In this document: one piece after another, positions 1,953-58,000 of the stretch
How the letters are laid out: every line of letters starts with the position of its first letter
Numbering within the stretch: position 1 is the stretch's first letter
Assembly (NCBI GenBank): GCA_017557345.1
Contig: JAFYZR010000082.1
Coordinates: forward strand, 57,315-121,314
Origin: Paludibacteraceae bacterium
Lineage (GTDB): Bacteria; Bacteroidota; Bacteroidia; Bacteroidales; Paludibacteraceae
Length of the DNA stretch: 64,000 nt
Reading direction: 5' to 3'
Translations under genes and position numbers: made by a program
The notes under the pieces: model-generated
Seen by the model: only the letters and a program-made list of their open reading frames with translations
Told to the model about the DNA's origin: nothing
The model's database searches: none

Positions 1953-2011
1953 CTGCTTTTTACACAAACCGCCAAATATAGTACTTGGGAAAAACTTGGG
2001 ATTTTATAACA

Positions 2012-2066
2012 TTACCTTATTTTTACCTTATCATTACCTTATCATTACCTGGTTATCACGTTATTT
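2012..2066. repeat. 11-bp phased tandem array A (TTACCTTATCA-type units)
   Basis: Units start at 2012, 2023, 2034, 2045 and 2056: ttaccttattt / ttaccttatca / ttaccttatca / ttacctggtta / tcacgttattt. The period is exactly 11 and two units are identical. Confidence 0.85.
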
Positions 2067-3910: not shown

Positions 3911-5083
3911 TTAATCGGGGACACCGTCATCCCAACCGATGCCTTTGTATTTGTCGAGATCCCACTCCTCTTCTACTTCATTTAGATATATCGTTTCCTC
4001 TTCTTCTTTTGCCTCGGGTTCTTCTTCGCGTTCAATAACGGTCACATCAATCGGAGCGTGCGATATTTCTATGATTTGATTTTGCTCTTTGTTCAATTCT
4101 GTCCAAAGTGCATCTTTCAATTCATCAATACCAACGCCTGCAACGGAAGAAATGAAAACAATAGGAATATCTAAACTTGTCAGTTTTTTTGATTTCTTCA
4201 GTTTAGCCAACTCTTTTTCGTCCAGCGTATCACATTTGCTGATGGCTAAAATCCGCGCTTTGGTCAGTAGTTCCGGATTATATTGCTCCAATTCGTGAAG
4301 AAGAATCTTATATTCTTTGATAACATCCTCGCTGGTCGCCGGAACCATAAAGAGCAATACAGCATTTCGCTCTATATGTCGCAAAAAACGAAGTCCAAGT
4401 CCTTTTCCTTCACTGGCTCCTTCGATAATACCCGGTATATCCGCCATGCAGAAAGAGCGGCCGTCGCGATAGGAAACGATTCCTAACTGCGGAGTGAGGG
4501 TAGTAAATGGATAATCGGCTATCTCTGGTTTTGCGGCAGAGACAACGCTTAATAATGTCGATTTACCTGCATTCGGGAATCCGACCAGACCAACATCCGC
4601 CAGCACTTTTAACTGCATGATGATTGTGCGTTCTTGTGCCGGTTCTCCCGGTTGCGCATAGCGCGGGGCTTGATTTGTCGCTGTGCGGAAATGCCAGTTG
4701 CCCAAACCGCCACGGCCACCTTTAAGCAATACCACACGCTCATCATGCTCTTTTACTTCGCAAAGAAACTCCCCCGTTTCACCGTCATAAACCACTGTGC
4801 CGCAAGGAACTTCAATAATCTTATCCTCGCCGTCCTTGCCGAACGACCTGCTCTGACCGCCTCTTCCGCCATCTGTGGCCATGATATGCTTTTGGTATTT
4901 GAGGTGGAGCAAAGTCCAGAGGTTGCGGTTGCCACGCAATATTATCGACCCGCCTTTTCCTCCGTCGCCGCCGTCCGGTCCGCCTTTCGGCAGATATTTG
5001 GCACGATGAAGGTGCATACAGCCAGCGCCGCCCTTTCCGGAGCGGCAGTAGATTTTAACGTAGTCGATAAAATTGCCTGACAT
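3911..5083 (-). CDS. obg: GTPase Obg/CgtA
   Basis: N-terminal [41 protein letters not shown] Obg fold, G1 GFPNAGKST, and an acidic C-terminal tail. Confidence 0.95.
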
Positions 5084-7176: not shown

Positions 7177-7223
7177 ATCTCGATATAATACTGACATAAT
7201 AGGTACATAATAGTTACCACACT
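7172..7223. repeat. 11-bp phased array D (ACATAATA-type units)
   Basis: The core (A[TC]ATAATA) sits at 7183-7190, 7194-7201 and 7205-7212 with period 11, flanked by degenerate units at 7172 and 7216. Confidence 0.7.
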
Positions 7224-11638: not shown

Positions 11639-11817
11639 GGAGTTTTTTGTGTATTTAAATACGATGGTGGCAATGCCAACAATAATAATGGCTGCCTTAT
11701 TCATAGTTGTAGTTAGTAAAAAAGTTCGTGAATGGAGTTAAGGTTTAGTCGATAATTTCTATCGATAACCTGGGCTTATTCAAAGATGGTATCCACTTCT
11801 TCATTTAATGTAAATTT

Positions 11818-22903: not shown

Positions 22904-24439
22904 TTAACGTGCTTTTGGCACCAAGGTTACCAGCGGAATGATCATTTCTTCGAGCGAAATACCACCATGCTGGAACGTATTGCGGTAGTATTGCGCGTAG
23001 TAATTAAACTGATTAGGATAGGCAAAGAAATCAGAACCGGTACAAAAAGCATAACTGCTGCTTACATTCGGGCAAGGAAGACCGATTCGTTTCGGTTGTT
23101 CGATACTCATTACGTTCTTTGAACTGCAGTTAAGCGCTTTACCCACTTTATAGCGGATGTTGGTATTGGTATTCTTATCAGCAATAATCTGTACGGCATT
23201 CTTCACACGCGTTGTGCCATGATCGGTTGTCAGCACCAAGGTAAAACCTAATTCAGACGCACGACGCAGCAAATCATAAGTAGGCGAGTGCTTAAACCAA
23301 CTAAGCGTCAAACTCCGATATGCCGATTCATCATTAGCCAACTCACGCATCATTTTACTTTCCGTGCGTGAGTGAGAGAGCATATCAATAAAATTGAAAA
23401 CAACAATATTGAGTGGAGTCTGTACGCCTTTTAATTGAGCAATTACGCGCTCGCAAAAATCACTCTCGTTTACTTTCCAATAATTGAAACTCTCGCGTCT
23501 GCGATATCGATCCAATAGTGTTTGTACGAGTTCTTTTTCATATTGATTCTTGCTCTCTTCATCACCTTCTTCAACCCAATATTGCGGATACATCTCTTGA
23601 ATCTGTAATGGTAGCAGACCAGAGAAAATAGCATTTCTGGCATACTGCGTAGCCGTAGGCAATATACTTGTATATTGCTCCTCGTTGCTTATGGTGTAGA
23701 ATTCGCTAATGAGCGGTTGGATAGTTTTCCATTGGTCATAACGGAAATTATCAATCACACAAAGTAATACTTTCTCTCCTTTATCCAACAAAGGAAAGAC
23801 AGTATGCTTCATTACATCGTGAGACATAACAGGCCTGTTCTCCGCGCCAAACCAGCCTTCGTAATTCTTTGCAATCCATTTTGCAAAGGCTGCATTGGCT
23901 TGCGTGCGTTGGTCGTCTATTAAAGAACGCATCGAAGAATTTTCTAATTCGATATCCCAACGGCTCAATGTGCGCTCAATTGCTTGCCATTCCTCTATCG
24001 TGCTTGCCGTATCAATCATATAGGAGATATCACTCCATTCTTGACGATAGTTCTGTTGTACTTGCTCTGTGACAATCGCTTGTTGGTGAATATGTTTCTT
24101 AAGGCACAAGAGAATTTGACTTGGATTAACAGGTTTGATGAGATAATCGGCTATCTTTTCTCCTATAGCCTGCTCCATGATATGTTCTTCTTCGCTTTTG
24201 GTAATCATCACCACCGGCACTTCAGGATGCAAACGTTTGATTTCCTGTAACGTCTCAAGTCCTGTCAGACCGGGCATATTTTCATCTAAAAAAACGATAT
24301 CGGGCACGGCATCAGCCAATGCATCTATTGCATCTTCGCCATTGCTGGCGGTTACTACCTCGTAGTTTTTACCTTTTAGGTAAATGATATATGGTTGTAA
24401 CAAATCTATTTCGTCATCAACCCAGAGTATTAGGTTCAT
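22904..24439 (-). CDS. porX: PorX-type response regulator (REC + PglZ/alkaline-phosphatase-like domain)
   Basis: N-terminal receiver domain (ILWVDDE...DENMPG...KS) followed by a ~350-aa PglZ-like domain. Length 511 aa, comparable to Porphyromonas PorX. Confidence 0.75.
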   Translation of the reverse strand: MNLILWVDDEIDLLQPYIIYLKGKNYEVVTASNGEDAIDALADAVPDIVFLDENMPGLTGLETLQEIKRLHPEVPVVMITKSEEEHIMEQAIGEKIADYLIKPVNPSQILLCLKKHIHQQAIVTEQVQQNYRQEWSDISYMIDTASTIEEWQAIERTLSRWDIELENSSMRSLIDDQRTQANAAFAKWIAKNYEGWFGAENRPVMSHDVMKHTVFPLLDKGEKVLLCVIDNFRYDQWKTIQPLISEFYTISNEEQYTSILPTATQYARNAIFSGLLPLQIQEMYPQYWVEEGDEESKNQYEKELVQTLLDRYRRRESFNYWKVNESDFCERVIAQLKGVQTPLNIVVFNFIDMLSHSRTESKMMRELANDESAYRSLTLSWFKHSPTYDLLRRASELGFTLVLTTDHGTTRVKNAVQIIADKNTNTNIRYKVGKALNCSSKNVMSIEQPKRIGLPCPNVSSSYAFCTGSDFFAYPNQFNYYAQYYRNTFQHGGISLEEMIIPLVTLVPKAR

Positions 24440-32555: not shown

Positions 32556-32563
32556 CAAAGGTA
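32556..32563 (-). promoter_or_regulatory. -7 box TACCTTTG (minus) for the CPBP gene
   Basis: Plus strand CAAAGGTA. Confidence 0.45.
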
Positions 32564-32690: not shown

Positions 32691-32698
32691 TACCTTTG
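32691..32698 (+). promoter_or_regulatory. -7 box TACCTTTG for the giant surface-protein gene
   Basis: Matches TAnnTTTG about 52 nt upstream of the ATG at 32750. Confidence 0.45.
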
Positions 32699-32749
32699 CA
32701 CACTGATTTGTAATTTTTAAATCTGTATATCGACGATAACACAAATACT

Positions 32750-35700
32750 ATGAGGCACTTGCTCACTCAACTCAAGAATCAGGGTTATTATCTAAACGGT
32801 ATTAAAACGTGGTTATCACCTACTAATAACCTACTAATAACCTACTTATCACCTACTAATCACCTACTCAAATCCCGTGCGCATCGCTGCGCCCAATTCG
32901 CCGTAACTCTCTTAGTTATGGTTGTGCTAAGCGTTGGAAATATGTGGGGAGAGACTGCTGTTGCAACAACTGCAGGAACATATAGTTTTGGTTCTACAAA
33001 TATTGGTGCTGCAAATAAATTTGCCGAAATCTCTACGAATTCTGTGTTTATATACAGATGGGCTGATAATTATTCTACGAGCAATAGTGGAATAAAGGCT
33101 GTATCAGGTAATCAATCAGGTTTTGTATTTTACACAACCTCTCCGATGACATTATCAGCTACCATTTATCAAAATAGTAAAACGGCTGAAACCGTAACTA
33201 TTTATGTTAAATCGATTACATCTGCATTCTTTCAAAATTTAGTAGATGGAACAGCAAACTCAACGACGGTTTCTGCGCCATCATTCTCCGATGTTGGCAC
33301 TTTTAGTGTTGTGGGTAGTACTACAAAACAAGAATATTCCGGCACATACGGCTCAACATTATCAGCAGGATATTATTACGTTTATGCTCGTTCAACAGCT
33401 GGAACATGTAATACTTATCATCGTTCTATTACGCTTGCTGCTCCTTCTTGTCCGACGTTGACGGTAAGTCGCGGAGGAACGGCTGATGGTACATATACGG
33501 TTGGAAACGATGGCGGAACTTTAACTTGTAGCGCAACCACAGGAACAATTACTTCTTATCAGTGGAAACAATATTCGTCTGGGCAAGGAATAGGCGATAC
33601 GATTGATGCCGTCGGATCAGGTGCGACAACGGCATCCTTTACCCCACACCCATTATCTGCCGGTACATACTACTATTTATGCCGTGCAAAAAATGCTTGC
33701 GGAGATGTTGCCGTTACTTCTACTTCCGGAACGTTTGTGTTTAATGCAGCAGGTTGCCCCAGTTATTCTTTCCATACAGGCGGCAATGATGTTAAGACAA
33801 ATAATACGCAGTCTTGTTTCGTACAAGTAGGATCCTCGCATGAATGGCAATTGACAGATTATACTATTCCTGCTGATACAAAATTCTTTGTTGGAGAACG
33901 TGGTTGGTGGTATAATGACAATTTAGGTTCAAATAATTCTCGCTCGTCGGCACAAACATGGGCTGACGAAATGTATTTAGCTATGTCGTTTGATTCGGGT
34001 GATGCCGCAGGAAGTCCTAAACTTGGTCAAGCCACCGGAGCAACTGGAACTATTCGAATTTATGATAATAGTGATTGGAATAATCTTAATGCAGCATTTA
34101 TTCCGGATGGTTATGTACTGAAGTTTGGCAGTTCATATGGATTGTTTACGGAAGGTCCTACAAACGAATTTTTATCGCCACTGGTTACTTATAATAGTAC
34201 AACGGCCGGCTATGCAGTTAGTGTGGGTGTGACGGATGAAAATGACGAGTATGTAAGTACTGCCAATACTCAGGAAATGCGTCATATTTTCCTCAAAGAC
34301 AATTGTGGATGGAGTGCAGATGGAGCTAAATTCGCTATCTATTACTGGAGTGGCGATAGTAATGGTTGGTGTGGTTTCTTACAAACTGTTCCTGGAGAAA
34401 CAAACTTATACGAAGGATGGATACCAGCAAGTTACACAAATTTGAAGTTTGTGCGCTTTAGCAGTTCAAAAACAGCTGTAGGTAGTTGGGATGACAAATG
34501 GAACGAAACGAGTGACTTATCTGTTACTAGTTCTCAGAACTATTTCACAATGTCATCGTTCTCTTCCGGTTCTTGGTCTGCTTATCAAAAGAAAGGGAAA
34601 TTCCGTATAAATGCAAATTACAAGGATAAGAACTGGTTCGTTCGTTTTATTCCTAATTATATTTTGACATATGATAAAAATGATGTGGGAGCGAGTGGAA
34701 CGATGGAAGAACAAGGAGTTGCAGTAGATGCGGTATCTAAAAACGTGACAGTTCTGGCTAATGGTTTTACTGCGCCAGCGGGTTACCACTTTGATACATG
34801 GAAAACAGCTCCGAGCAGTGGAACTTCTTATGCTGCTGGTTCTACTTACAATCTTACTGCTGATGCGACATTGTATGCTCAATGGGCACCGACGACCTAT
34901 ACGATTACTCTTGCTGCTGGCGATCATGGAGCAGCTAATCAATCGGCAACAGTGGTTTATGATGCCACAGCACTTTCTTCCATTACTCATGTCACTGCAG
35001 CTGCGTCCTCGCCACATCAATATTATGATCTAACGGGATATTATGATGGTGAAACGAAGGTGCTCAATATCGATGGAACTTTTGCGGCAACCAACGTGAC
35101 AGGATATATTACTGATGGTAAATGGAGCAAGGCTGATGATTGTACCTTAACTGCGAAATGGACAGGAAAGGTTTATAGTATCACGTATAAAGAAAATGAT
35201 AATTCTACCGTCATTGGCGGTCTCAGTCCAAGTAGTTACACTTATGGCGTTGGTGCCGTTCTTCCAACTCCCACTAAATCTGGCTATACCTTTGAGTCTT
35301 GGTATTTAGCATGGTGTGTTTTTGAAGAAGGCGGTTCTGGAAATGGTTTTGTAGACGGATGTAAAAAAACAGCATTGAGTGCATCTGATCATGGCAGTGC
35401 GACTTATCTTGCTCGCTGGTATCAAACAGTTACATTGGATAAGAACGGTGGTGATGCAGATGGTGCTGTGGTTGCGTGGTGTAATGAGTCAGGAACAACA
35501 TCCCTTTCTGCACCAACTCGTGCGGGTTATTCCGTAGAGGGCTACTATGCTGAGGCTGGTTGTACAAATAAAGTAATGACCGATGCGGGTGTGTTAGTGG
35601 ATTATTCCGGCTATGTAAGTAGTGGTAAATGGATTCATTCCGGCGCTACGACTCTATATGCGAAGTGGACGAAAGAATCTGGTTGTATCAAATGGTCAGG

Positions 35701-41700: not shown

Positions 41701-42154
41701 TACCGATGAATTTGATAATGGTTGGGAAGCCAAATACCAAGATTGTGACAATCGATCGGCACAGATGTATGCAGAAAGTGAATTGGGTAGAATGGCATTC
41801 ATAGCGAAACCGAATATTGATGGAACAGTTCTCGGTTTTGCGCCTTCGCGCGATGGTCATGAGTACACATTCTCATTCTATTATTTAGGCGACGAAGCAT
41901 TATATCTAAATGATATGCAATTAGAGGTATCAACTTTGATTGACGCAGAGAATACATATACTTTTACATATAGTGAAGAGGATATGGCGGAACGTTTCAT
42001 TATCAGCCGACAAGCGTTTGGTGCACCGGCTGTCACCACCGGTAATGAGCGTATCAGCGATGATGCTAAACCCATCAAGTTCATCAAAGATGACCATATA
42101 TTCATTTTGGTGCGTGGCATCTTGTATGATATAACAGGTAAAGTAGTTAGATAA
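32750..42154 (+). CDS. Giant (3134 aa) multidomain cell-surface protein, probable T9SS cargo
   Basis: A single uninterrupted ORF. Signal-peptide-like KSRAHRCAQFAVTLLVMVVLSVGNMWG at residues 41-67, Ig-like modules, many Listeria-Bacteroides (InlB B / Flg_new) repeats, one FN3, one Big_2-like module, and a C-terminal beta-sandwich ending KFIKDDHIFILVRGILYDITGKVVR. Confidence 0.85.
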   Translation: MRHLLTQLKNQGYYLNGIKTWLSPTNNLLITYLSPTNHLLKSRAHRCAQFAVTLLVMVVLSVGNMWGETAVATTAGTYSFGSTNIGAANKFAEISTNSVFIYRWADNYSTSNSGIKAVSGNQSGFVFYTTSPMTLSATIYQNSKTAETVTIYVKSITSAFFQNLVDGTANSTTVSAPSFSDVGTFSVVGSTTKQEYSGTYGSTLSAGYYYVYARSTAGTCNTYHRSITLAAPSCPTLTVSRGGTADGTYTVGNDGGTLTCSATTGTITSYQWKQYSSGQGIGDTIDAVGSGATTASFTPHPLSAGTYYYLCRAKNACGDVAVTSTSGTFVFNAAGCPSYSFHTGGNDVKTNNTQSCFVQVGSSHEWQLTDYTIPADTKFFVGERGWWYNDNLGSNNSRSSAQTWADEMYLAMSFDSGDAAGSPKLGQATGATGTIRIYDNSDWNNLNAAFIPDGYVLKFGSSYGLFTEGPTNEFLSPLVTYNSTTAGYAVSVGVTDENDEYVSTANTQEMRHIFLKDNCGWSADGAKFAIYYWSGDSNGWCGFLQTVPGETNLYEGWIPASYTNLKFVRFSSSKTAVGSWDDKWNETSDLSVTSSQNYFTMSSFSSGSWSAYQKKGKFRINANYKDKNWFVRFIPNYILTYDKNDVGASGTMEEQGVAVDAVSKNVTVLANGFTAPAGYHFDTWKTAPSSGTSYAAGSTYNLTADATLYAQWAPTTYTITLAAGDHGAANQSATVVYDATALSSITHVTAAASSPHQYYDLTGYYDGETKVLNIDGTFAATNVTGYITDGKWSKADDCTLTAKWTGKVYSITYKENDNSTVIGGLSPSSYTYGVGAVLPTPTKSGYTFESWYLAWCVFEEGGSGNGFVDGCKKTALSASDHGSATYLARWYQTVTLDKNGGDADGAVVAWCNESGTTSLSAPTRAGYSVEGYYAEAGCTNKVMTDAGVLVDYSGYVSSGKWIHSGATTLYAKWTKESGCIKWSGTPSSWTAGKITINSLVLEASATAPDINTSSNNQVWSGHTETVMALQSNGVYVQGHFSNGSEINTLTISAANNNGTAGTDKKYLVLFCANSSFSSGVTGQLHAAPSYKDAQNDTKLIHEFTAPAGTKYFRIYRKLNEDVGNYKNGGDTIGDGQTTRIYGIEVCPVPVYEVTYKANGGTGEDMVDDDAKTIAENTFTRSGYAFMGWNTASDGSGTPYAVGTTVTEDLTLFAQWEKAYTITLDNQSADLIAGTASISVIYNHNDNLLARMDPPIKSGYYFGGYYTETGGAGVKVINESGDVLASATGYTDASRNWVYDGNKTLYAKWTALTVSLTISPASINPHSSTPVTFTITTNAPSSAVDPPYYFAIYNLGNPAHITGYLNGDHPVSDGSTTVAIDKDFGLWSTQAVILWKSQILATSAAQTLTVECTTPDVPDGLTAGSITTNSVTFTITDDNTPESYDIYYSTNSTAPTPGTAATTTTPGNTKEKSVTGLESSTTYYAWVRAVCDASHKSSWVALTGSSFTTEAPPTYSVTYNDHRLSLDGVDEAPVIDEAGGTVPTDANSYLEGATVSVLGNTGDLTFIIDGAEATFRGWTNNSLGYSNPYYTAGSTFAMPASNVTLYAVWSFPIEYYLNGGTINDVSYDTYYIYTNNIDNSGIMTATLPTNVTKVGYTFEGWYHKSDFSDVRRYGVEGYWYGEYEAFAKWTENLYDITYDSNGGSGSMSNTHGHYVTIANNNFTNSGYIFNGWNTAADGSGISYDAGEEIELTANLTLYAQWKLDYIITWGNVQIGGAGATITPNLGGGNYTITVNTGVWSGSLTADMLSASAGVTITNVTVDNSGSPKTATLTFSVGADVVGSTITLTIDVPAHGDYSAKTSDHVISIDRCEGVATVWDFTTNTFLKGGSWSTSAGAENKAYATDGSTILKYYAGGGGDVWSSSNAQLQTQGTTATSTGTSKKQITQKYFQFPTLSGKGKISVTYGTNKSTLKIYEATSTNIYGLEPVITLTSDAPASNTYSFKSDKTYYMTMESSKVYFKKITFVDLSGSEITPTLSWETDLSGGVAKETGDADFTHTASTTSNTLGTITYSSSNTAVATVNASTGKVHIVGAAGSAVITATLSASGCYSSATISYTINVTRDCDDVAGTIETTDLGCDIQMTVSGHTTSGESVSYQWYKVGSPDVTVGTNSSTFTTNVPGEYYVVVTNTGSRHCAMASTNTIVVEERSGFEISKIIDYWYIKNGRRTPDIELVQTNSAGTFTVKVNGSTIDNIGGCHFYLGDDGIIYLKGTQDNGEAPSGLTDGENITLQITVNQECGDGTSYVEIEIRCQGATTRPSIAFVVDGDKGDDFADENEEHSVETALYKFLDYGEDLSGAFDLTGQNIYSTTDEKLIREHYSQFDAVLVTDDPSTKATPKGISGDDAYKTKGYVNAFGALIDVRPILTMEAYVSALANWDCVKGDPTSPNPRQYEMRLQCKNHEIYGGLPTPSSRPGISNVWEEIIDGEEYRHVIMVDSTLSPYTGIAYNVQTGGNEKPALQGFTLEAMGELLGLGVISDGALQAGIERQHEPAARMMILGINAKALPHALTPEGKKVIENAITYLLKTNMEDVDDCSNFFVGGTDGHEKDWSTLTNWSKGSLPSNESKVRILAPCEISNAVGYVAQIEIASSGSSKTRYISRGDATCDGNLVIAADGALVVNGKIYSAVAPYFNSAKLAPTSPSELKIEANSLNTGALIFDNSDGKAQATVEMYSASYWEVVEGKKKKWWSYVGVPITNVDIPNYFYLGFTYLYDETSGWIKKWDGSVLQPFDGIGLSMQSGHKETFYGTLASTATKEISLTKTAEAGNGENLIGNSWIAPIQIANFETADFGGATATVYVYNTGRDDVYHNPTYVAATEDNDGAATAGQWVGVPVNVAGLPGYTGLKVVPAMNAFQVNTSSEATLTLDYNKLVRKNAVTNANINNPLRAPRRTESVSEIEALMRVRVTGEYTHTDVWLLQDEQFTDEFDNGWEAKYQDCDNRSAQMYAESELGRMAFIAKPNIDGTVLGFAPSRDGHEYTFSFYYLGDEALYLNDMQLEVSTLIDAENTYTFTYSEEDMAERFIISRQAFGAPAVTTGNERISDDAKPIKFIKDDHIFILVRGILYDITGKVVR
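32819..32873. repeat. 11-bp phased tandem array B (CCTACTAATAA-type units) inside the 5' end of the giant ORF
   Basis: The CCTACT core starts at 32819, 32830, 32841, 32852 and 32863, an exact 11-bp period. It encodes PTNNLLITYLSPTNHLLKS. Confidence 0.85.
34658..35674 (+). other. Block of Listeria-Bacteroides (Flg_new/InlB B) repeats, residues ~637-975
   Basis: Recurrent Y(T/S)ITxxxxGG...P(T)R/KxGYxFxGWY...TLYA(Q/K)W pattern. Confidence 0.7.
36197..36679 (+). other. Second block of Flg_new-type repeats, residues ~1150-1310
   Basis: YEVTYKANGGTGEDM...TRSGYAFMGWNT...LTLFAQW, then YTITLDNQ...KSGYYFGGYY...KTLYAKW. Confidence 0.7.
36983..37273 (+). other. Fibronectin type III-like domain, residues ~1412-1508
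   Basis: PDVPDGLTAGSITTNSVTFTITDD...YDIYYS...VTGLESSTTYYAWVRAVC. Confidence 0.65.
37283..38035 (+). other. Third block of Flg_new-type repeats, residues ~1512-1762
   Basis: YSVTYND...FRGWTN...VTLYAVW; YYLNGG...VGYTFEGWY...AFAKW; YDITYDSNGGSG...NSGYIFNGWNT...LTLYAQW. Confidence 0.7.
38846..39112 (+). other. Big_2-like bacterial Ig domain
   Basis: ITYSSSNTAVATVNASTGKVHIVGAAGSAVITATL. Confidence 0.6.
41912..42151 (+). other. Putative T9SS C-terminal sorting domain
   Basis: The last ~80 residues are beta-rich and end ...FIKDDHIFILVRGILYDITGKVVR, like Por_Secre_tail/DUF6383-type termini. Confidence 0.55.
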
Positions 42155-44022
42155 TGGCAAAAGGTCATAGGTTAGTTGTTGCAGGAATATTGATTGTGCT
42201 GCCGGTGCTTTTTGGCGCTTGGCAGGCACAAGCTGTGACCTATAAGAGCACTTATAGCGGCGCTACCTATCGTCCAACTTCATCTGTCAACTATCAAGTT
42301 GCATTTCCAATAGACCCGTTCCAATCTACCAGTATGTACTCAAGTCAATGGCAGGAACAGCCATCAATGCTCAATACCGATGGCTCCGTGAATGCCGAGG
42401 CATATATGAACGGAAGTAGGAGTGCGATCAGCCCGAGGCGTATTATCAATCCTGATGATGACGACGATGATAACCAGGAGAATGGTACGCCTATTGGTGA
42501 TACATTATTACCATTGCTATTATTTGGAATGGTGTATATCTTCATTCGTAATAGAAAACGGAAGCAAACCTATCGTGTTCATAACGGGATTATATGTGTA
42601 TTTATAGCACTTACAAGTATCTTAATGGTGTTCTGTCAGCCACAAGGAGAAAAAGTGCGTTATAGTCAAGAACTGATTAACGCCAGGATGACGGCATGGC
42701 ATAATAAAGATGCTGATGTGGGATTTCCAAATGCGAACAGCACGAACGGCATAACAAAACCTGAACATTTTGCTACCTGGGATTATGTCCCTGGTGTTGT
42801 AGCCAAGGGCATTCTCGATGTATGGGCGTATTATCAAGATTCCGCATGGGCAGATGCATGGTATAAAGGGTTAGAGCAATGGGCGCTACAGTTTAAAGGG
42901 GAAAGTTTAGAGTTTAGAGGAGGGATTCTGGATGATTTGAACTGCTTAAAGGTATTCCTCGGATTATACGAAGGAGCTAAGCCCGGTGGCCGATTCGAGA
43001 ATGCAGAGCATGCCGAATTTTATATGGAGCAAATGCGCAAGGGCGCACAAGCACTAGCGGAACATAAAGAAAGATACTCGATTAGGGAGTTGGGGAATGA
43101 GCGAATAGCGGTGGAAGGCGGTTGGATGCATAAAGCGACAGATGACCCATCAAAAAGTTATTGGGGACAGATGTGGTGCGATGGCGCGTATATGGGTCCT
43201 GCTTTATTGGCTCAATTATTGCGTGTGGGAGCATGTGAAGGAACCGGTTTAGGATGGAATGATGTCTATACTCAGTTTCATGCTTCGTGGCCATATCTAT
43301 GGGATGAAGAGAAGAAATTGCTATATCATGTGTTGTTTACGGATGTGGAAGTGAATGAAAACGCCCGTGCTATCTATGAGAAAGGCCATGCCTATTTATG
43401 TAAGGAGGGCGGTGTATATCATTCCGAGGAATATTGGGGTCGTGCAGCGGGATGGTATATATTGGCTTTAGTTGATGTGATGGAGGCATATGTGGCCAAT
43501 CTTCTTCCAGGCGAAGAACCGGGTGCTAATTTTGATATTCTACGGGATTATTTGACTCAATTATCAGATGGTTTAGTCGCACGCCAAGACCCTAAGACAG
43601 GTTGTTGGTACCAGTTATTGGCATACGACAGTACCAAATGTGCCACACAAGGAGTAGATGATACAGGTTCAGAAAGATACAGCAATGTGGAGGCAGGAGG
43701 AACACAGTGCAATTACTTAGAATCTTCCGCATCCTGTCTAATCACAGCAGCATTGTTGAAAGGTTCACGTTTGGGATTTATCGACCAGATGGATGCAGGA
43801 AAACGAGGATACGAAGGCATTCTAAAGCAATTCGTTCGCGGAGAGAAAGGTAACTACAATCTAATTCATAGTTGTCAGTCAGCAGGATTGAGCTATGACC
43901 GCAACGGCACCGCTGCGTATTATCTGATAGGCAAGGATGTGCGAATTCAGGATGATACGGAAGGCAAAGTGTTAGGCGCCTTTTTGATGGCGGCCGTAGA
44001 ATATGAAAGAGCCTGTCATTGA
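42154..44022 (+). CDS. Chimeric ORF: signal peptide + ~100-aa region + TM/basic anchor, fused in frame to a GH88/GH105-type unsaturated glycuronyl hydrolase
   Basis: The ATG overlaps the giant gene's stop (TAATG at 42152-42156). Residues 1-140 end NGTPIGDTLLPLLLFGMVYIFIRNRKRK. Next comes a lipoprotein-like IICVFIALTSILMVFCQ segment. The remainder has WDYVPGVV, WCDGAYMGP and GRAAGWY, typical of GH88/105. Confidence 0.65.
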   Translation: MAKGHRLVVAGILIVLPVLFGAWQAQAVTYKSTYSGATYRPTSSVNYQVAFPIDPFQSTSMYSSQWQEQPSMLNTDGSVNAEAYMNGSRSAISPRRIINPDDDDDDNQENGTPIGDTLLPLLLFGMVYIFIRNRKRKQTYRVHNGIICVFIALTSILMVFCQPQGEKVRYSQELINARMTAWHNKDADVGFPNANSTNGITKPEHFATWDYVPGVVAKGILDVWAYYQDSAWADAWYKGLEQWALQFKGESLEFRGGILDDLNCLKVFLGLYEGAKPGGRFENAEHAEFYMEQMRKGAQALAEHKERYSIRELGNERIAVEGGWMHKATDDPSKSYWGQMWCDGAYMGPALLAQLLRVGACEGTGLGWNDVYTQFHASWPYLWDEEKKLLYHVLFTDVEVNENARAIYEKGHAYLCKEGGVYHSEEYWGRAAGWYILALVDVMEAYVANLLPGEEPGANFDILRDYLTQLSDGLVARQDPKTGCWYQLLAYDSTKCATQGVDDTGSERYSNVEAGGTQCNYLESSASCLITAALLKGSRLGFIDQMDAGKRGYEGILKQFVRGEKGNYNLIHSCQSAGLSYDRNGTAAYYLIGKDVRIQDDTEGKVLGAFLMAAVEYERACH

Positions 44023-54662: not shown

Positions 54663-54690
54663 ATGAGAGTCTTTTGACACCGAGAATAAC

Positions 54691-54745
54691 GCACTTATCG
54701 CGCACTTATCTCGCACTAATAGCGCACTTATCACGCACTAATTTT
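54691..54745. repeat. 11-bp phased tandem array C (CGCACTTATCN units)
   Basis: The CGCACT core starts at 54691, 54702, 54713, 54724 and 54735, an exact 11-bp period. Confidence 0.85.
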
Positions 54746-55065: not shown

Positions 55066-58000
55066 ATGAAGAAATTTAACGAATATAAACGTTTGGATTT
55101 GCCTGCGTTGAGCCGAGAGGTTCTGGCGCAGTGGGAAGAGGAAAAATTATTTGAGAAAAGTGTCTCTACGCGTGAGGGACACGCACAGTTTTTGTTCTTT
55201 GAAGGACCTCCTTCAGCTAATGGAATGCCAGGTATTCACCATGTGATGGCGCGAACGATAAAAGATACGTTCTGCCGTTTCAAGACGATGCAAGGTTTCC
55301 AGGTTCGCCGTAAGGCGGGTTGGGATACGCACGGTCTGCCGGTAGAACTGGGGGTGGAGAAAATGCTGGGTATTACCAAAGAGGATATCGGCAAGAAGAT
55401 TTCGGTTGATGAATACAATGCCGCTTGTCGTCGTGAGGTGATGAAATATACCAAAGAATGGACCAACCTTACCAAGCAAATGGGTTATTGGGTCGATCTG
55501 GACAATCCGTATATCACTTACGATAACAAATATATCGAAACGCTGTGGTATTTGCTGAAGGAACTTTATAAAAAAGGCTATCTTTACAAGGGATATACCA
55601 TTCAGCCATATTCTCCAGCTGCCGGAACGGGTTTGTCGAGCCATGAATTGAACCAGCCAGGTTGTTATCGTGACGTTAAAGATCTTACCTGTACAGCGCG
55701 ATTCCATCTAAAAGATGGAAGATATATCATCGCATGGACCACAACACCTTGGACGCTTCCTTCCAATACAGCTCTTTGCGTCGGTCCGAAGATTGATTAT
55801 ATCGAAGTGCAAACCCCAGCAGGCGATCATGTTATTCTTGCTGAGGCTCGTTTGGATGCCTATAAGAAAGATTTGTGCGGAGTGGACGAAGAAGGTAACG
55901 TCCGTGAACCGGAAATCGTTTGGCGTGGCAAGGGTACAGACCTTTTAGGTCTGGAATACGATCCGCTTTTCCCGTGGGTTAATCCGGGTGAAGGTGCTTT
56001 CCGTGTTATTTTGGGTGATTACGTGACGACGGAAGATGGTACAGGTATCGTACATATCGCTCCTACTTTTGGTGCGGATGATAAGAAGGTGGGTGATGCA
56101 GCAGGTGTGCCGGGATTGTATATGCAGACCAAGAATTATGGTCCGCGACCTATGGTCGATTTTACCGGGAAGTACTGGAAAATAGAAGATTTGGATCCGG
56201 AATGGGTTAAAACCAACGTCAATACGGATTTATACGGAAAGTATGCCGGTCGCTTTGTGAAGAATGCTTACGACCCGAATCTGACGGAAAAAGACGAGAC
56301 GCTTGATTTGCATTTGTGCCTTGAGATGAAAGCCGATGGACGACTCCTTAGGACGGAAAAACATGTGCACTCTTATCCGCATTGCTGGCGTACAGACAAG
56401 CCGGTTATCTATTATCCGCTTGACTCCTGGTTCATCAAATCCACCATGGCACGGGATGAGATGATTTCGCTCAATCAGACGATTAACTGGCAACCGGAAT
56501 CCACGGGAACAGGCCGTTTCGGTCAATGGTTGAATAATCTCAACGACTGGAATCTCTCCCGCTCGCGTTATTGGGGCACGCCATTACCTATCTGGCGAAC
56601 AGAAGATGGCTCCGAAGAAATATGTATCGGTTCGATTGCAGAACTCTTCGCGGAAATTGACAAATCCGTCAAGGCCGGTTTCATGAAAGCCAACCCGTGG
56701 CCAAATCACAAAGTAGGCGATTATAGCAAGGAAAACTATGATCCATCGGTTATTGATTTGCATCGTCCGTATGTGGATTCGATAGTTCTTGTTTCGCCAA
56801 GCGGCAAGCCGATGAAACGTGAACTCGATCTGATTGACGTTTGGTTCGATTCGGGCGCTATGCCTTATGCCCAAAATCACTATCCGTTTGAGAATGCAGA
56901 TCTGCCTCGTACTGCCGATTTCATCTCCGAAGGAGTTGACCAAACGCGCGGATGGTTCTTCACCTTGCATGCTATCCATACGATGATTGAAGGTACGGTG
57001 GCTTATAAGAATGTCATTTCTAACGGACTGGTACTCGACAAAAACGGCAATAAGATGTCCAAACGTTTGGGAAATGCCGTTGATCCGTTTGGGGCTTTGG
57101 ATACTTATGGCGCAGATCCCGTTCGCTGGTATATGCTAACCAACTCCAGCCCTTGGGAAAATCTGAAGTTTGATCCCGAAGGTGTGGATGAAGTGCGCCG
57201 TAAATTCTTTGGAACGCTTTATAACACCTACGGATTCTTCGCATTGTATGCGAATGTGGATAACTGGACCGGTTTGGAATCGGAGCAAACCAAGCATGCG
57301 GAATATCAAGAAATAGATAAGTGGATTCTATCCAAACTTAATTCCCTTGTCAAAGAAGTAACAGAATCGTACGAAGCCTATGAGCCGACGAAAGCCGGAC
57401 GTGCTATCTCTGATTTTGTACAAGATGACTTGTCTAACTGGTACGTGCGTTTGAACCGCAAACGTTTCTGGGGCGGAGAAATGAATGCCGATAAGCAAGC
57501 GGCTTACGAGACACTTTATAGTTGTTTGAAGACCGTTGCTCAACTGATGGCACCGAATGCGCCATTCTATGCAGACCGTTTATATCGCGACTTAGTTGGA
57601 GAGACCGTTCACTTGAGCAATTGGCCAAAGGCCAATGAAGAACTCATAGATGCAAATCTTGAGCGTCAGATGTATCTGGCACAACAAGCCACTTCGATGA
57701 TCTTGAGTCTACGCAAACGGGCCGAGAAGAATGTTCGCCAACCATTGCAGAAAGCGGTTATTCCTACTCCGGATAAAGAGACAACCGATGCTTTGTTGCA
57801 TGTAGCCGATCTTATCAAGAGTGAAGTGAATGTGAAGGAATTGGTAATTGTTCCTGCCGAGCAATCCGAGATTCGTCTTGTCAAGAAAATCAAACCGCAA
57901 TTCAAAGTGCTTGGAAAGAAAGTAGGCGGTCAAATGAAAGCTCTTGCTGCGGCTATCGCAGAGATGAGTCAGGATGACATCGCCAAAATGGAAGCAGACG

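Follow-up and report, generated by a model that had tools for sequence, protein, structure and literature searches.

The 64,000-nucleotide stretch of Paludibacteraceae DNA analyzed here (hereafter the window, positions 57,315 to 121,314 of contig JAFYZR010000082.1) carries a giant open reading frame (ORF) for a very large secreted adhesin, which corresponds to protein MBR5677923.1 of a Paludibacteraceae metagenome-assembled genome (MAG) at NCBI and is also represented on European Nucleotide Archive (ENA) contigs from ruminant-gut metagenomes. In its 5' end the ORF contains a tandem array of five 11-bp units, which a preliminary description of the locus had read as a possible frameshift switch or, alternatively, as a protein-binding site or leader element with a non-canonical start downstream. 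The gene is preceded by an inferred promoter whose -7 box agrees with the TAnnTTTG consensus of sigma-ABfr (PMC7366714), lies 52 nt 5' of the start codon and is kept at two related adhesin loci, on contigs L129 and L131. The array begins 119 nt 3' of this box (121 nt separate the box from the first CCTACT core) and 67 nt past the start codon, about 115-170 nt beyond a transcription start predicted near position 32705, and it codes for residues 23-41 of the ORF. Neither a type IX secretion system (T9SS) C-terminal domain nor any other NCBIfam family was found on the giant protein.

The five CCTACT cores start at positions 32819, 32830, 32841, 32852 and 32863, as originally reported, at a spacing of exactly 11 bp. 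Tandem Repeats Finder, run on the window, delimits the array to 32818-32868 and assigns it a period of 11, 4.6 copies, 92% matches and a score of 81. The spaced pair CCTACT-N5-CCTACT occurs four times, always at the array and nowhere else in the 64 kb, against 0.07 occurrences expected, and none of 100 shuffled sequences reached four pairs. Two of the units are identical (CACCTACTAAT twice), in agreement with the preliminary description, and the perfect period-11 tract spans 29 bp (32818-32846, or 2.6 units). The array is contained in a 64-nt stretch devoid of G (32813-32876), the second longest of its kind in the window. Independent ENA, Logan and NCBI assemblies all contain the array in identical form, which shows it to be real DNA and not an assembly artefact. 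Further copies of the leader, such as a shufflon would employ, were sought in the window and none was found.

A scan of JGI metagenomes for CCTACT-N5-CCTACT-N5-CCTACT returned at least 120 stretches, most of them unrelated microsatellites; among the matches listed, about 20 loci present both the unit and the spacer seen in the window. The consensus of 76 units from 17 of these loci is [A/C]ACCTACTAAT, and positions that the search had not fixed are conserved in 72/76, 74/76, 69/76 and 70/76 units (91-97%). Arrays of this family comprise 3-6 strict units and share a polar build: two GATGGT-type in-phase units adjoin one end, and at the opposite end the repeats decay into CATACTAAT/GTACTA (CATACT/GTACT) units. 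Membership was defined by at least three 10-mer units spaced in 11-bp phase and by degenerate units that continue this phase at the array edges, and the window array belongs to the family: three of its five units match the consensus perfectly, the other two carry one and three changes, and a comparison of flanks identifies the two degenerate units on its 5' side as the counterpart of the GATGGT-type units that precede family arrays. All 20 metagenome loci listed are intergenic, with no ORF spanning the array, whereas the window copy lies inside an ORF. The unit is not in Rfam, and a literature search for its sequence gave unrelated primers only, so that the family is apparently undescribed in either source. 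No array was found in 2.9 million viral contigs, and a phage origin was rejected.

At nine of the loci the array, at about +5 to +95, separates a consensus promoter (TTTG-N19-20-TAccTTTG) from the start codon of a conserved gene encoding a 145-residue protein. There the gene is on the strand opposite to CCTACT, the reverse of the orientation seen in the window, and the leader of its mRNA would read (AUUAGUAGGUN)n. At three further loci (L033, L052 and L106) the nearby promoter points away from the array, which lies 112-125 nt behind it, and at another (L070) it lies 362 nt 5' of the gene for a 1734-residue secreted protein. The arrays thus keep no fixed orientation to transcription, an argument for an element acting as DNA rather than as RNA. 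Upstream of the 145-residue gene the unit is conserved even though the protein diverges to 52% identity. This protein family comprises more than 340 clusters, all unnamed, with members that start MAKV[DEF][FY]S[PA]GI...RQKHLH..., and it gave no match in Pfam, NCBIfam, PHROG, PDB sequences or plasmid records. Its AlphaFold model has a predicted local distance difference test (pLDDT) score of 73 and a best Foldseek E-value of 0.7, with weak PC4/Pur-alpha-like matches, none of which is significant. At the 15 loci listed, the gene always follows a canonical promoter and a leader of about 190 nt that opens with (ATTAGTAGGTN)n, and AGGTGAT within these leader units is complementary to the 3' end of 16S rRNA.

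Read in one of its three codon phases, the consensus unit gives a TAA stop, and a perfect array of three or more units is consequently closed in all frames. In the window it is unit 3 that falls in this phase, and unit 3 alone has T at unit position 9, where A is found in 74/76 family units and T in 0/76; the T is thus unique among 81 units, and A in its place would stop the ORF at codon 33. In L129, T is likewise present in the unit of the same codon phase. Because 11 is not a multiple of three, any change in unit number breaks the frame, and simulated arrays with one unit fewer, or with one, two or even three additional consensus units, all stop at codon 33, bearing out the earlier proposal that such a change uncouples the start codon from the downstream frame. 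Judged from the sequence, the open frame at 32847 is best read as the signature of a non-coding element that came to lie in a reading frame, which selection keeps open.

Annotations are split on whether the array is translated: ENA gene calls (Prodigal-type) use the ATG at 32750, and the NCBI record, produced by the Prokaryotic Genome Annotation Pipeline (PGAP), the ATG at 32918. The former had been described as the only in-frame ATG, which is incorrect, since ATG 32918 (M57) and ATG 32942 (M65) are in frame too; these two codons, however, fall within or beyond the signal peptide's hydrophobic core. Were translation to begin at ATG 32918, as PGAP has it, or at a non-canonical codon downstream, the array would be an untranslated 5' leader, in keeping with the non-coding nature of the array family at all other loci listed. 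Initiation context speaks for the upstream codon: ATG 32750 has A at -3, -6, -11, -12 and -14, in line with the A-rich positions described as the Bacteroidetes initiation context (PMC7366714), while ATG 32918 has a poor one, with two of seven preferred A positions. A start at M57 is unlikely because it would leave 11 residues before cleavage and no n-region, and this residue, itself within the hydrophobic core, is Leu at the equivalent position of L129. No ATG, GTG or TTG is in frame between 32762 and 32917, and in the window as in L129 the interval from the array to the signal-peptide n-region is without a start codon. From the ATG to the ...WG motif, the signal-peptide frame is free of stops over 67 codons in the window, 63 in L129 and 83 in L131, whereas the other two frames of the same leaders have 3-7 stops each. 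Upstream of the signal peptide alone, those frames average approximately 4, 3 and 2 stops, respectively, and the chance of three open leaders is of the order of e^-9. The T at 32847, which abolishes a stop, points in the same direction, and the arrangement ACACA-N(3-6)-ATGA(G/C) found at ATG 32750 recurs in L129 (ATG 746) and L131 (ATG 200), in each case followed by a long extension and a signal peptide.

An untranslated leader is hence highly improbable in our estimation. Strong sequence evidence indicates that the extension, array included, is translated from ATG 32750, and the NCBI start of the giant protein is probably mis-called by 56 codons. The earlier placement of the array between the start codon and the signal-peptide segment, in translated sequence (residues 23-41 versus K41-G67), appears correct on this evidence. 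The alternative offered in the preliminary description has to be divided: a protein-binding site or leader element gains support from the roughly 20 non-coding loci listed, while the non-canonical downstream start is contradicted by the lack of a start codon and by a frame that is open in three lineages. The signal peptide was assigned by inspection and by alignment of the junction between ...WG and ETAVATTAGTYSFGS with homologues. The signal peptides of about 20 homologues of the N-terminal domain are of the ordinary kind, 20-25 residues long and ending in A/G followed by ET..ATTAGTYSFGS, and these homologues lack the extension. Coordinates of the features discussed here are collected in Table 1.

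Table 1. Features of the adhesin leader, other period-11 arrays of the window and loci of the 145-residue gene.
Feature	Position	Strand	Description
Third period-11 array	2010-2050	+	CATTACCTTAT x 3.7; intergenic, 55-100 nt upstream of a minus-strand promoter
Further period-11 arrays	7194-7217, 22977-23002		Intergenic
Mirror-image -7 box	32556-32563	-	Predicted to serve the divergent Rce1-like gene
-7 box of adhesin gene, TAccTTTG	32691-32698	+	Inferred promoter; pattern scan, fits sigma-ABfr consensus
Giant surface-protein ORF, 3134 aa	32750-42154	+	Listeria-Bacteroides repeat and Ig-like domains
Start codon of giant ORF	32750-32752	+	First start past in-frame stop at 32711
N-terminal extension, M1-L40	32750-32869	+	Probably partly array-encoded; poorly conserved
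Two degenerate in-phase units, AACGGTATTAA, AACGTGGTTAT	32795-32816	+	11-bp register kept (repeat family D1)
Five 11-bp units, family register	32817-32871	+	CACCTACTAAT, AACCTACTAAT, AACCTACTTAT, CACCTACTAAT, CACCTACTCAA; consensus [A/C]ACCTACTAAT
T in unit 3	32847	+	Consensus in-frame TAA becomes TTA (TAC-TTA), codon 33
Sec-type signal peptide, K41-G67	32870-32950	+	n-region KSRAHR, h-region FAVTLLVMVVLSV, c-region GNMWG; predicted cleavage before E68
In-frame ATG (M57), NCBI start	32918-32920	+	MBR5677923.1, 3078 aa, residues 57-3134 exactly
Second window array	54690-54744	+	Five units CGCACT-[T/A]AT[C/A]N; intergenic, prsW/ileS; same build
Loci of the 145-aa gene	L018, L074, L079, L088, L090, L093, L094, L097, L113, L136-L141

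The related adhesin leaders were used to assess how the array evolves. L129 is syntenic with the window, with both promoter boxes conserved, and the promoter region of L131 is homologous to that of the window. The L129 array reads CCCAGA-AACAA, CGCAGT-TATCA, CCCAGT-TATCA, CCCAGT-AATCA and CCCCCT-TTCAG (3.1 copies according to Tandem Repeats Finder). Relative to the window, two changes to the core (T to C and C to G, which turn CCTACT into CCCAGT) recur in all units, in any codon phase, and yield unrelated residues (T to R/S, LL to AV, Y to Q); since the same changes are found in every unit regardless of codon position, the repeat evolves as DNA and not as protein. The window and L129 share a left anchor, AACG(T/C)(G/A)GTTATCACC, and a right anchor, CGTGC, between which the window is 22 nt (two units) longer. 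Upstream of the left anchor the difference is 14 nt with the first ATG of L129 (731) as reference and 29 nt with the homologous ATG (746), which brings the totals to 36 and 51 nt, both multiples of three. An alternative register, in which the window and L129 species each have five units, is also possible. The L131 extension also has period 11 in two arrays, CGAGTCGATCA x ~6 and TCGCTCTCGTC x 3.9, which are unrelated in sequence, and the peptide encoded by the extension is not conserved among the window, L129 and L131. Conservation at this locus over evolutionary time thus resides in a promoter-near start codon, a translated spacer free of sequence constraint and period-11 tandem repeats inside that spacer.

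Period-11 arrays with different units are found elsewhere in the window, and one of them, which begins 28 nt past the prsW stop and about 275 nt 5' of the ileS promoter box, has the same build as the adhesin array. In 183 kb of related loci, the commonest tandem-repeat periods are 11 and 7. At nine loci (L012, L052, L056, L060, L062, L063, L070, L079 and L094), the intergenic DNA by the arrays is crowded with other short tandem repeats whose units are unrelated (G-rich 7-11-mers, GCATTTCGGTCT x 3, ACATCTCCCCC x n), and at one of these (L062) two related arrays, AATCACCTACT x 4 at 2174-2217 and GAATCACCTAA x 4.9 at 4779-4832, which have AATCACCTA in common, bracket the genes for an AraC-type regulator and for GalM. 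These genomes seem to have tandem repeats in their intergenic DNA as a general feature.

The preliminary description had advanced a frameshift switch driven by slippage. In a contingency locus of this kind, comparable to Neisseria opa, slipped-strand changes in unit number during replication would silence the adhesin, and reversion would restore it. Several features of the locus are compatible with this mechanism. The unit is not a multiple of three and is repeated in the 5' coding region of a hypervariable surface protein, ahead of its signal peptide, and every simulated change in unit number leads to the stop at codon 33. In all three related leaders the repeats have the non-triplet period of 11 but unrelated sequences, which would be expected if repetition as such is what matters, and copy number varies between species (4.6 vs 3.1, with the frame restored elsewhere) and from 3 to 6 within the family. 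OFF alleles are tolerated as well: in L002 an AAA to TAA change at codon 639 (~11686-11688) truncates an adhesin that is otherwise co-linear with the L008 allele, from which it follows that the locus tolerates inactivation. The tract itself, however, is neither long nor homogeneous, with 2.6 perfect units where known switches use long perfect tracts, and it does not vary among assemblies, the only difference in length being that between species. Five identical units, without a single substitution, are present in every assembly that covers the array, amounting to at least 11 contigs from at least seven samples and to four adhesin alleles that are otherwise about 64% identical or replaced altogether. 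The assemblies compared were the window/NCBI MAG, L001/L132, L002, L008, L130, L133 and L135, and counts of exact proteins add 5 + 2 + 1 + 1 contigs that encode the leader. The repeat family is similarly invariant among strains at the locus of the 145-residue gene: for 15 contigs with an identical protein, the 6 places shown all have the same array despite single-nucleotide polymorphisms (SNPs) in the promoter region. Arrays are, moreover, common where there is no frame to be switched.

One contig provides a weak hint of heterogeneity. The Logan contig L134 (k=31, SRR12529217; tail ...CCTACTAATAACCTACTAATAACCTACT) ends at 32846, after the CCTACT of unit 3 and precisely where the perfect tract ends, which is the point at which a six-unit variant or a change at 32847 would branch the assembly graph; low coverage explains this end equally well. 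A neighbouring Logan contig stops instead just before a known strain SNP at 32875. This position and 32878 are the first two strain differences past the array, and both are synonymous third positions, in accord with translation of the leader. The degree of conservation of the leader between strains was evaluated separately and is not exceptional, as identical runs of about 300 nt are found elsewhere in the same alignment. Furthermore, expansion would not leave the gene ON, because one phase of the consensus unit contains a stop, and the array would be a one-way fuse and not a reversible counter. Rare, essentially one-way OFF mutations at the array are certainly possible, but a high-frequency frameshift switch is disfavoured by the short perfect tract, by the five units in all covering assemblies and by the invariant array of the 145-residue gene, and we consider slipped-strand switching of the opa kind unlikely. 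Variation in unit number, which the preliminary description had proposed to look for in reads and related strains, is absent at the level of assemblies, and invariance across strains was among the outcomes that it had named as speaking against a switch. The switch mechanism is unsupported, whereas the underlying element is real, conserved and unexplained.

A role at the RNA level was also considered. The G-free, C-rich and unstructured 64-nt tract could load Rho when translation is poor, bind an RNA-binding protein or pair with the complementary (AUUAGUAGGU)n leader of the mRNA for the 145-residue protein. The rarity of G-free stretches of this length in the window, the absence of a predicted stable structure (z-score of 0.06, a fold no better than that of shuffled sequences) and the presence of the array downstream of predicted promoters in both contexts, with transcripts complementary over about 50 nt, are all in agreement with such a role. 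It is difficult to reconcile, on the other hand, with the opposite orientations of the array to transcription in the two contexts and with arrays that lie upstream of both flanking promoters. L129 and L131 do not share the G-poverty, the 64-kb window contains no gene for the 145-residue protein, and no relevant Rfam match was obtained for the window region or for five related loci. We accordingly regard an RNA-level element as quite improbable.

The reading that we favour, tentatively and at a little under an even chance, is that of a helical-phase repeat element acting at the DNA level and overprinted by the N-terminal extension, rather than that of a rapid frameshift switch. Under this model, the five units would be one copy of the recurrent direct-repeat element ([A/C]ACCTACTAAT)n of rumen Bacteroidales, which is non-coding elsewhere. 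The ORF would read through it to obtain residues 23-41 of an extension of about 40 residues on which sequence is not constrained, and the extension, which precedes a normal Sec signal peptide, should be cleaved off together with it. Selection would keep the frame open, as suggested by the T that removes the consensus TAA, while the repeat itself appears to evolve as DNA. By analogy with the tandem 11-bp direct repeats that serve winged-helix regulators, the array may modulate adhesin transcription from early within the transcribed region, as a multimeric protein-binding site, as intrinsically bent DNA or as both. The strict helical phase, the conserved core followed by an A/T-rich spacer and the length of 5-8 units correspond to the format expected for co-operative protein binding on one face of the helix.

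Several observations weigh against this model. No binding protein for the array was identified and no regulator gene adjoins it; a scan for response-regulator genes, which covered the ORFs flanking the array and those in the final third of the window, found none. Because their units differ, no single sequence-specific factor can explain the arrays of all three adhesin leaders, and the other period-11 arrays of the same genome again have different units. A position some 70-120 nt into a coding region is unusual for an operator, and no recognisable DNA-binding fold was found in the 145-residue protein. Curvature offers little help. A wedge model, with parameters that are reportedly those of Bolshoy et al. 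1991, predicts a bend of 82 degrees over the 55 bp of the array, at the 99th percentile of the window, and of 86 degrees for the L129 array. Selection for curvature was nonetheless rejected, as 40% of five-fold arrays of shuffled units bend as much and the second array of the window is straight, and the predicted bend is largely a generic result of the 11-bp periodicity.

Much of the data could also be explained by a neutral origin, in which 11-bp tandem duplications build up and persist in unconstrained DNA, purifying selection removes only those that break the frame and the array is inert. The scatter of period-11 arrays of many different units through intergenic DNA, the lack of conservation of the extension peptide across the window, L129 and L131, the imperfection of the units and their differing sequence in orthologous leaders, together with the bending that any 11-bp tandem repeat would exhibit, are what such a process would leave behind. 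It does not readily account for the occurrence of the identical 10-mer ACCTACTAAT at non-homologous loci in many genomes, for its retention by the 145-residue gene while the protein falls to 52% identity, or for the polar build that the arrays share, with GATGGT-type units at one end and CATACT/GTACT units at the opposite end. The recurrent 10-mer and the polar build imply selection on sequence, at least in the family associated with the 145-residue gene, and we judge a neutral passenger to be a doubtful but quite conceivable explanation of the window array. A more elaborate scenario, which we deem distinctly unlikely, would combine several of these roles: an operator-like or bent array of a lineage-wide, so far undescribed regulon of rumen Bacteroidales, with the 145-residue gene as its hallmark, would have been captured in frame by giant adhesins, and the same 55 bp would serve as codons, as regulatory DNA and as a locked frameshift fuse that gives rise to rare heritable OFF variants.

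The surroundings of the array were characterized further. A 27-nt inverted repeat (32554-32580/32674-32700, 81% complementary) flanks 93 nt of the intergenic DNA upstream of the adhesin gene, and it was considered as a possible invertible promoter. It was rejected as such, as the repeat corresponds to the two divergent -7 boxes (GTACCTTTGCA for the Rce1-like and adhesin genes) and its orientation is constant in all assemblies. A search for synteny with the Rce1-like neighbour in 185k reference genomes yielded only a 40%-identical Sphingobacterium match, the species not being represented among them. Directly past the array and the signal peptide begins a hot spot of allelic replacement in the adhesin gene (window 32875 onward; L002 9772-13607; L130 5001-5480), with flanks about 97% identical between strains versus about 64% for the adhesin body, and in L130 the shared leader and signal peptide are fused to an unrelated 159-residue product. 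At the other end, a GH88 (unsaturated glucuronyl hydrolase) family gene (42154-44022) begins at the stop codon of the giant ORF, with an ATGA overlap, and the two genes may share a transcript.

If the array is functional, it would represent a regulatory or structural DNA repeat that was overprinted by a coding region without losing its repeat character. A repeat family conserved base for base characterizes the leaders both of giant adhesins and of a conserved orphan gene of rumen Bacteroidales, and it offers a concrete handle on the control of very large surface proteins in uncultured gut bacteria. The case also illustrates that a non-triplet repeat in the 5' coding region is insufficient on its own to call a gene phase-variable.

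Among known systems, the opa genes of Neisseria, in which pentameric CTCTT coding repeats in the leader-peptide region switch at about 1e-3 per generation (PMC3960869), share with the window a non-triplet tandem repeat in the 5' leader-coding region of a variable surface adhesin. The opa tracts, however, are long, perfect and variable between and within strains, whereas the window array comprises five imperfect units and is invariant among assemblies; moreover, it precedes the signal peptide, while the opa repeat lies inside it, and its consensus unit has a stop codon in one phase. The 7-bp repeats of Haemophilus influenzae hmw1A and hmw2A, located in the 5' region of a very large adhesin gene, affect its expression (PMC8262952) and resemble the array in that location. 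They differ in that they form approximately 10-30 perfect copies in the promoter or untranslated region and have a graded effect on transcription, whereas the array is short and translated. Some autotransporters and two-partner-secretion proteins carry an extra N-terminal segment before the signal peptide, the extended signal peptide region (ESPR; PMC2805444), and thus present, like the window protein, a very large secreted adhesin with a segment added ahead of a normal signal peptide. The ESPR is a conserved peptide motif of Proteobacteria (Pfam PF13018), while here it is the periodicity of the DNA that is conserved and not the peptide, and a Pfam scan of the whole giant protein gave no PF13018 match at E<=0.01.

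Closer parallels are found among DNA-binding arrays. Direct repeats of 11 bp are the binding format of winged-helix regulators of the OmpR/PhoB/SARP type (PMC10936776; PMC9019756), and PHO boxes and the afs box display, as the array does, cores of 6-7 nt with A/T-rich spacers of 4-5 nt, repeated in tandem at an 11-bp period so that all sites face the same side of the helix. The window array shares with these operators the direct repetition of a conserved core at 10-11-bp spacing, but not their position at or just upstream of the -35/-33 element, since only some arrays of the family lie upstream of promoters. The known operators, furthermore, have 2-4 units and a known regulator, whereas here 5-8 units lie 3' of the transcription start and inside an ORF. 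In parC of plasmid R1, ten 11-bp iterons in sets of five, next to the promoter, are bound co-operatively by ParR, which forms a filament on one face of the DNA. That locus is plasmid-borne and beside parMR, while the window array is chromosomal, with no partition genes nearby. The searched literature contains no description of a helical-phase repeat family, kept base for base across hundreds of uncultured Bacteroidales, of which one copy is read in frame as a disposable extension ahead of a signal peptide. Together, these comparisons indicate that the array is least like the opa and hmw repeats and, by analogy, appears most similar to direct-repeat operators and iteron arrays, although it lacks their usual position.

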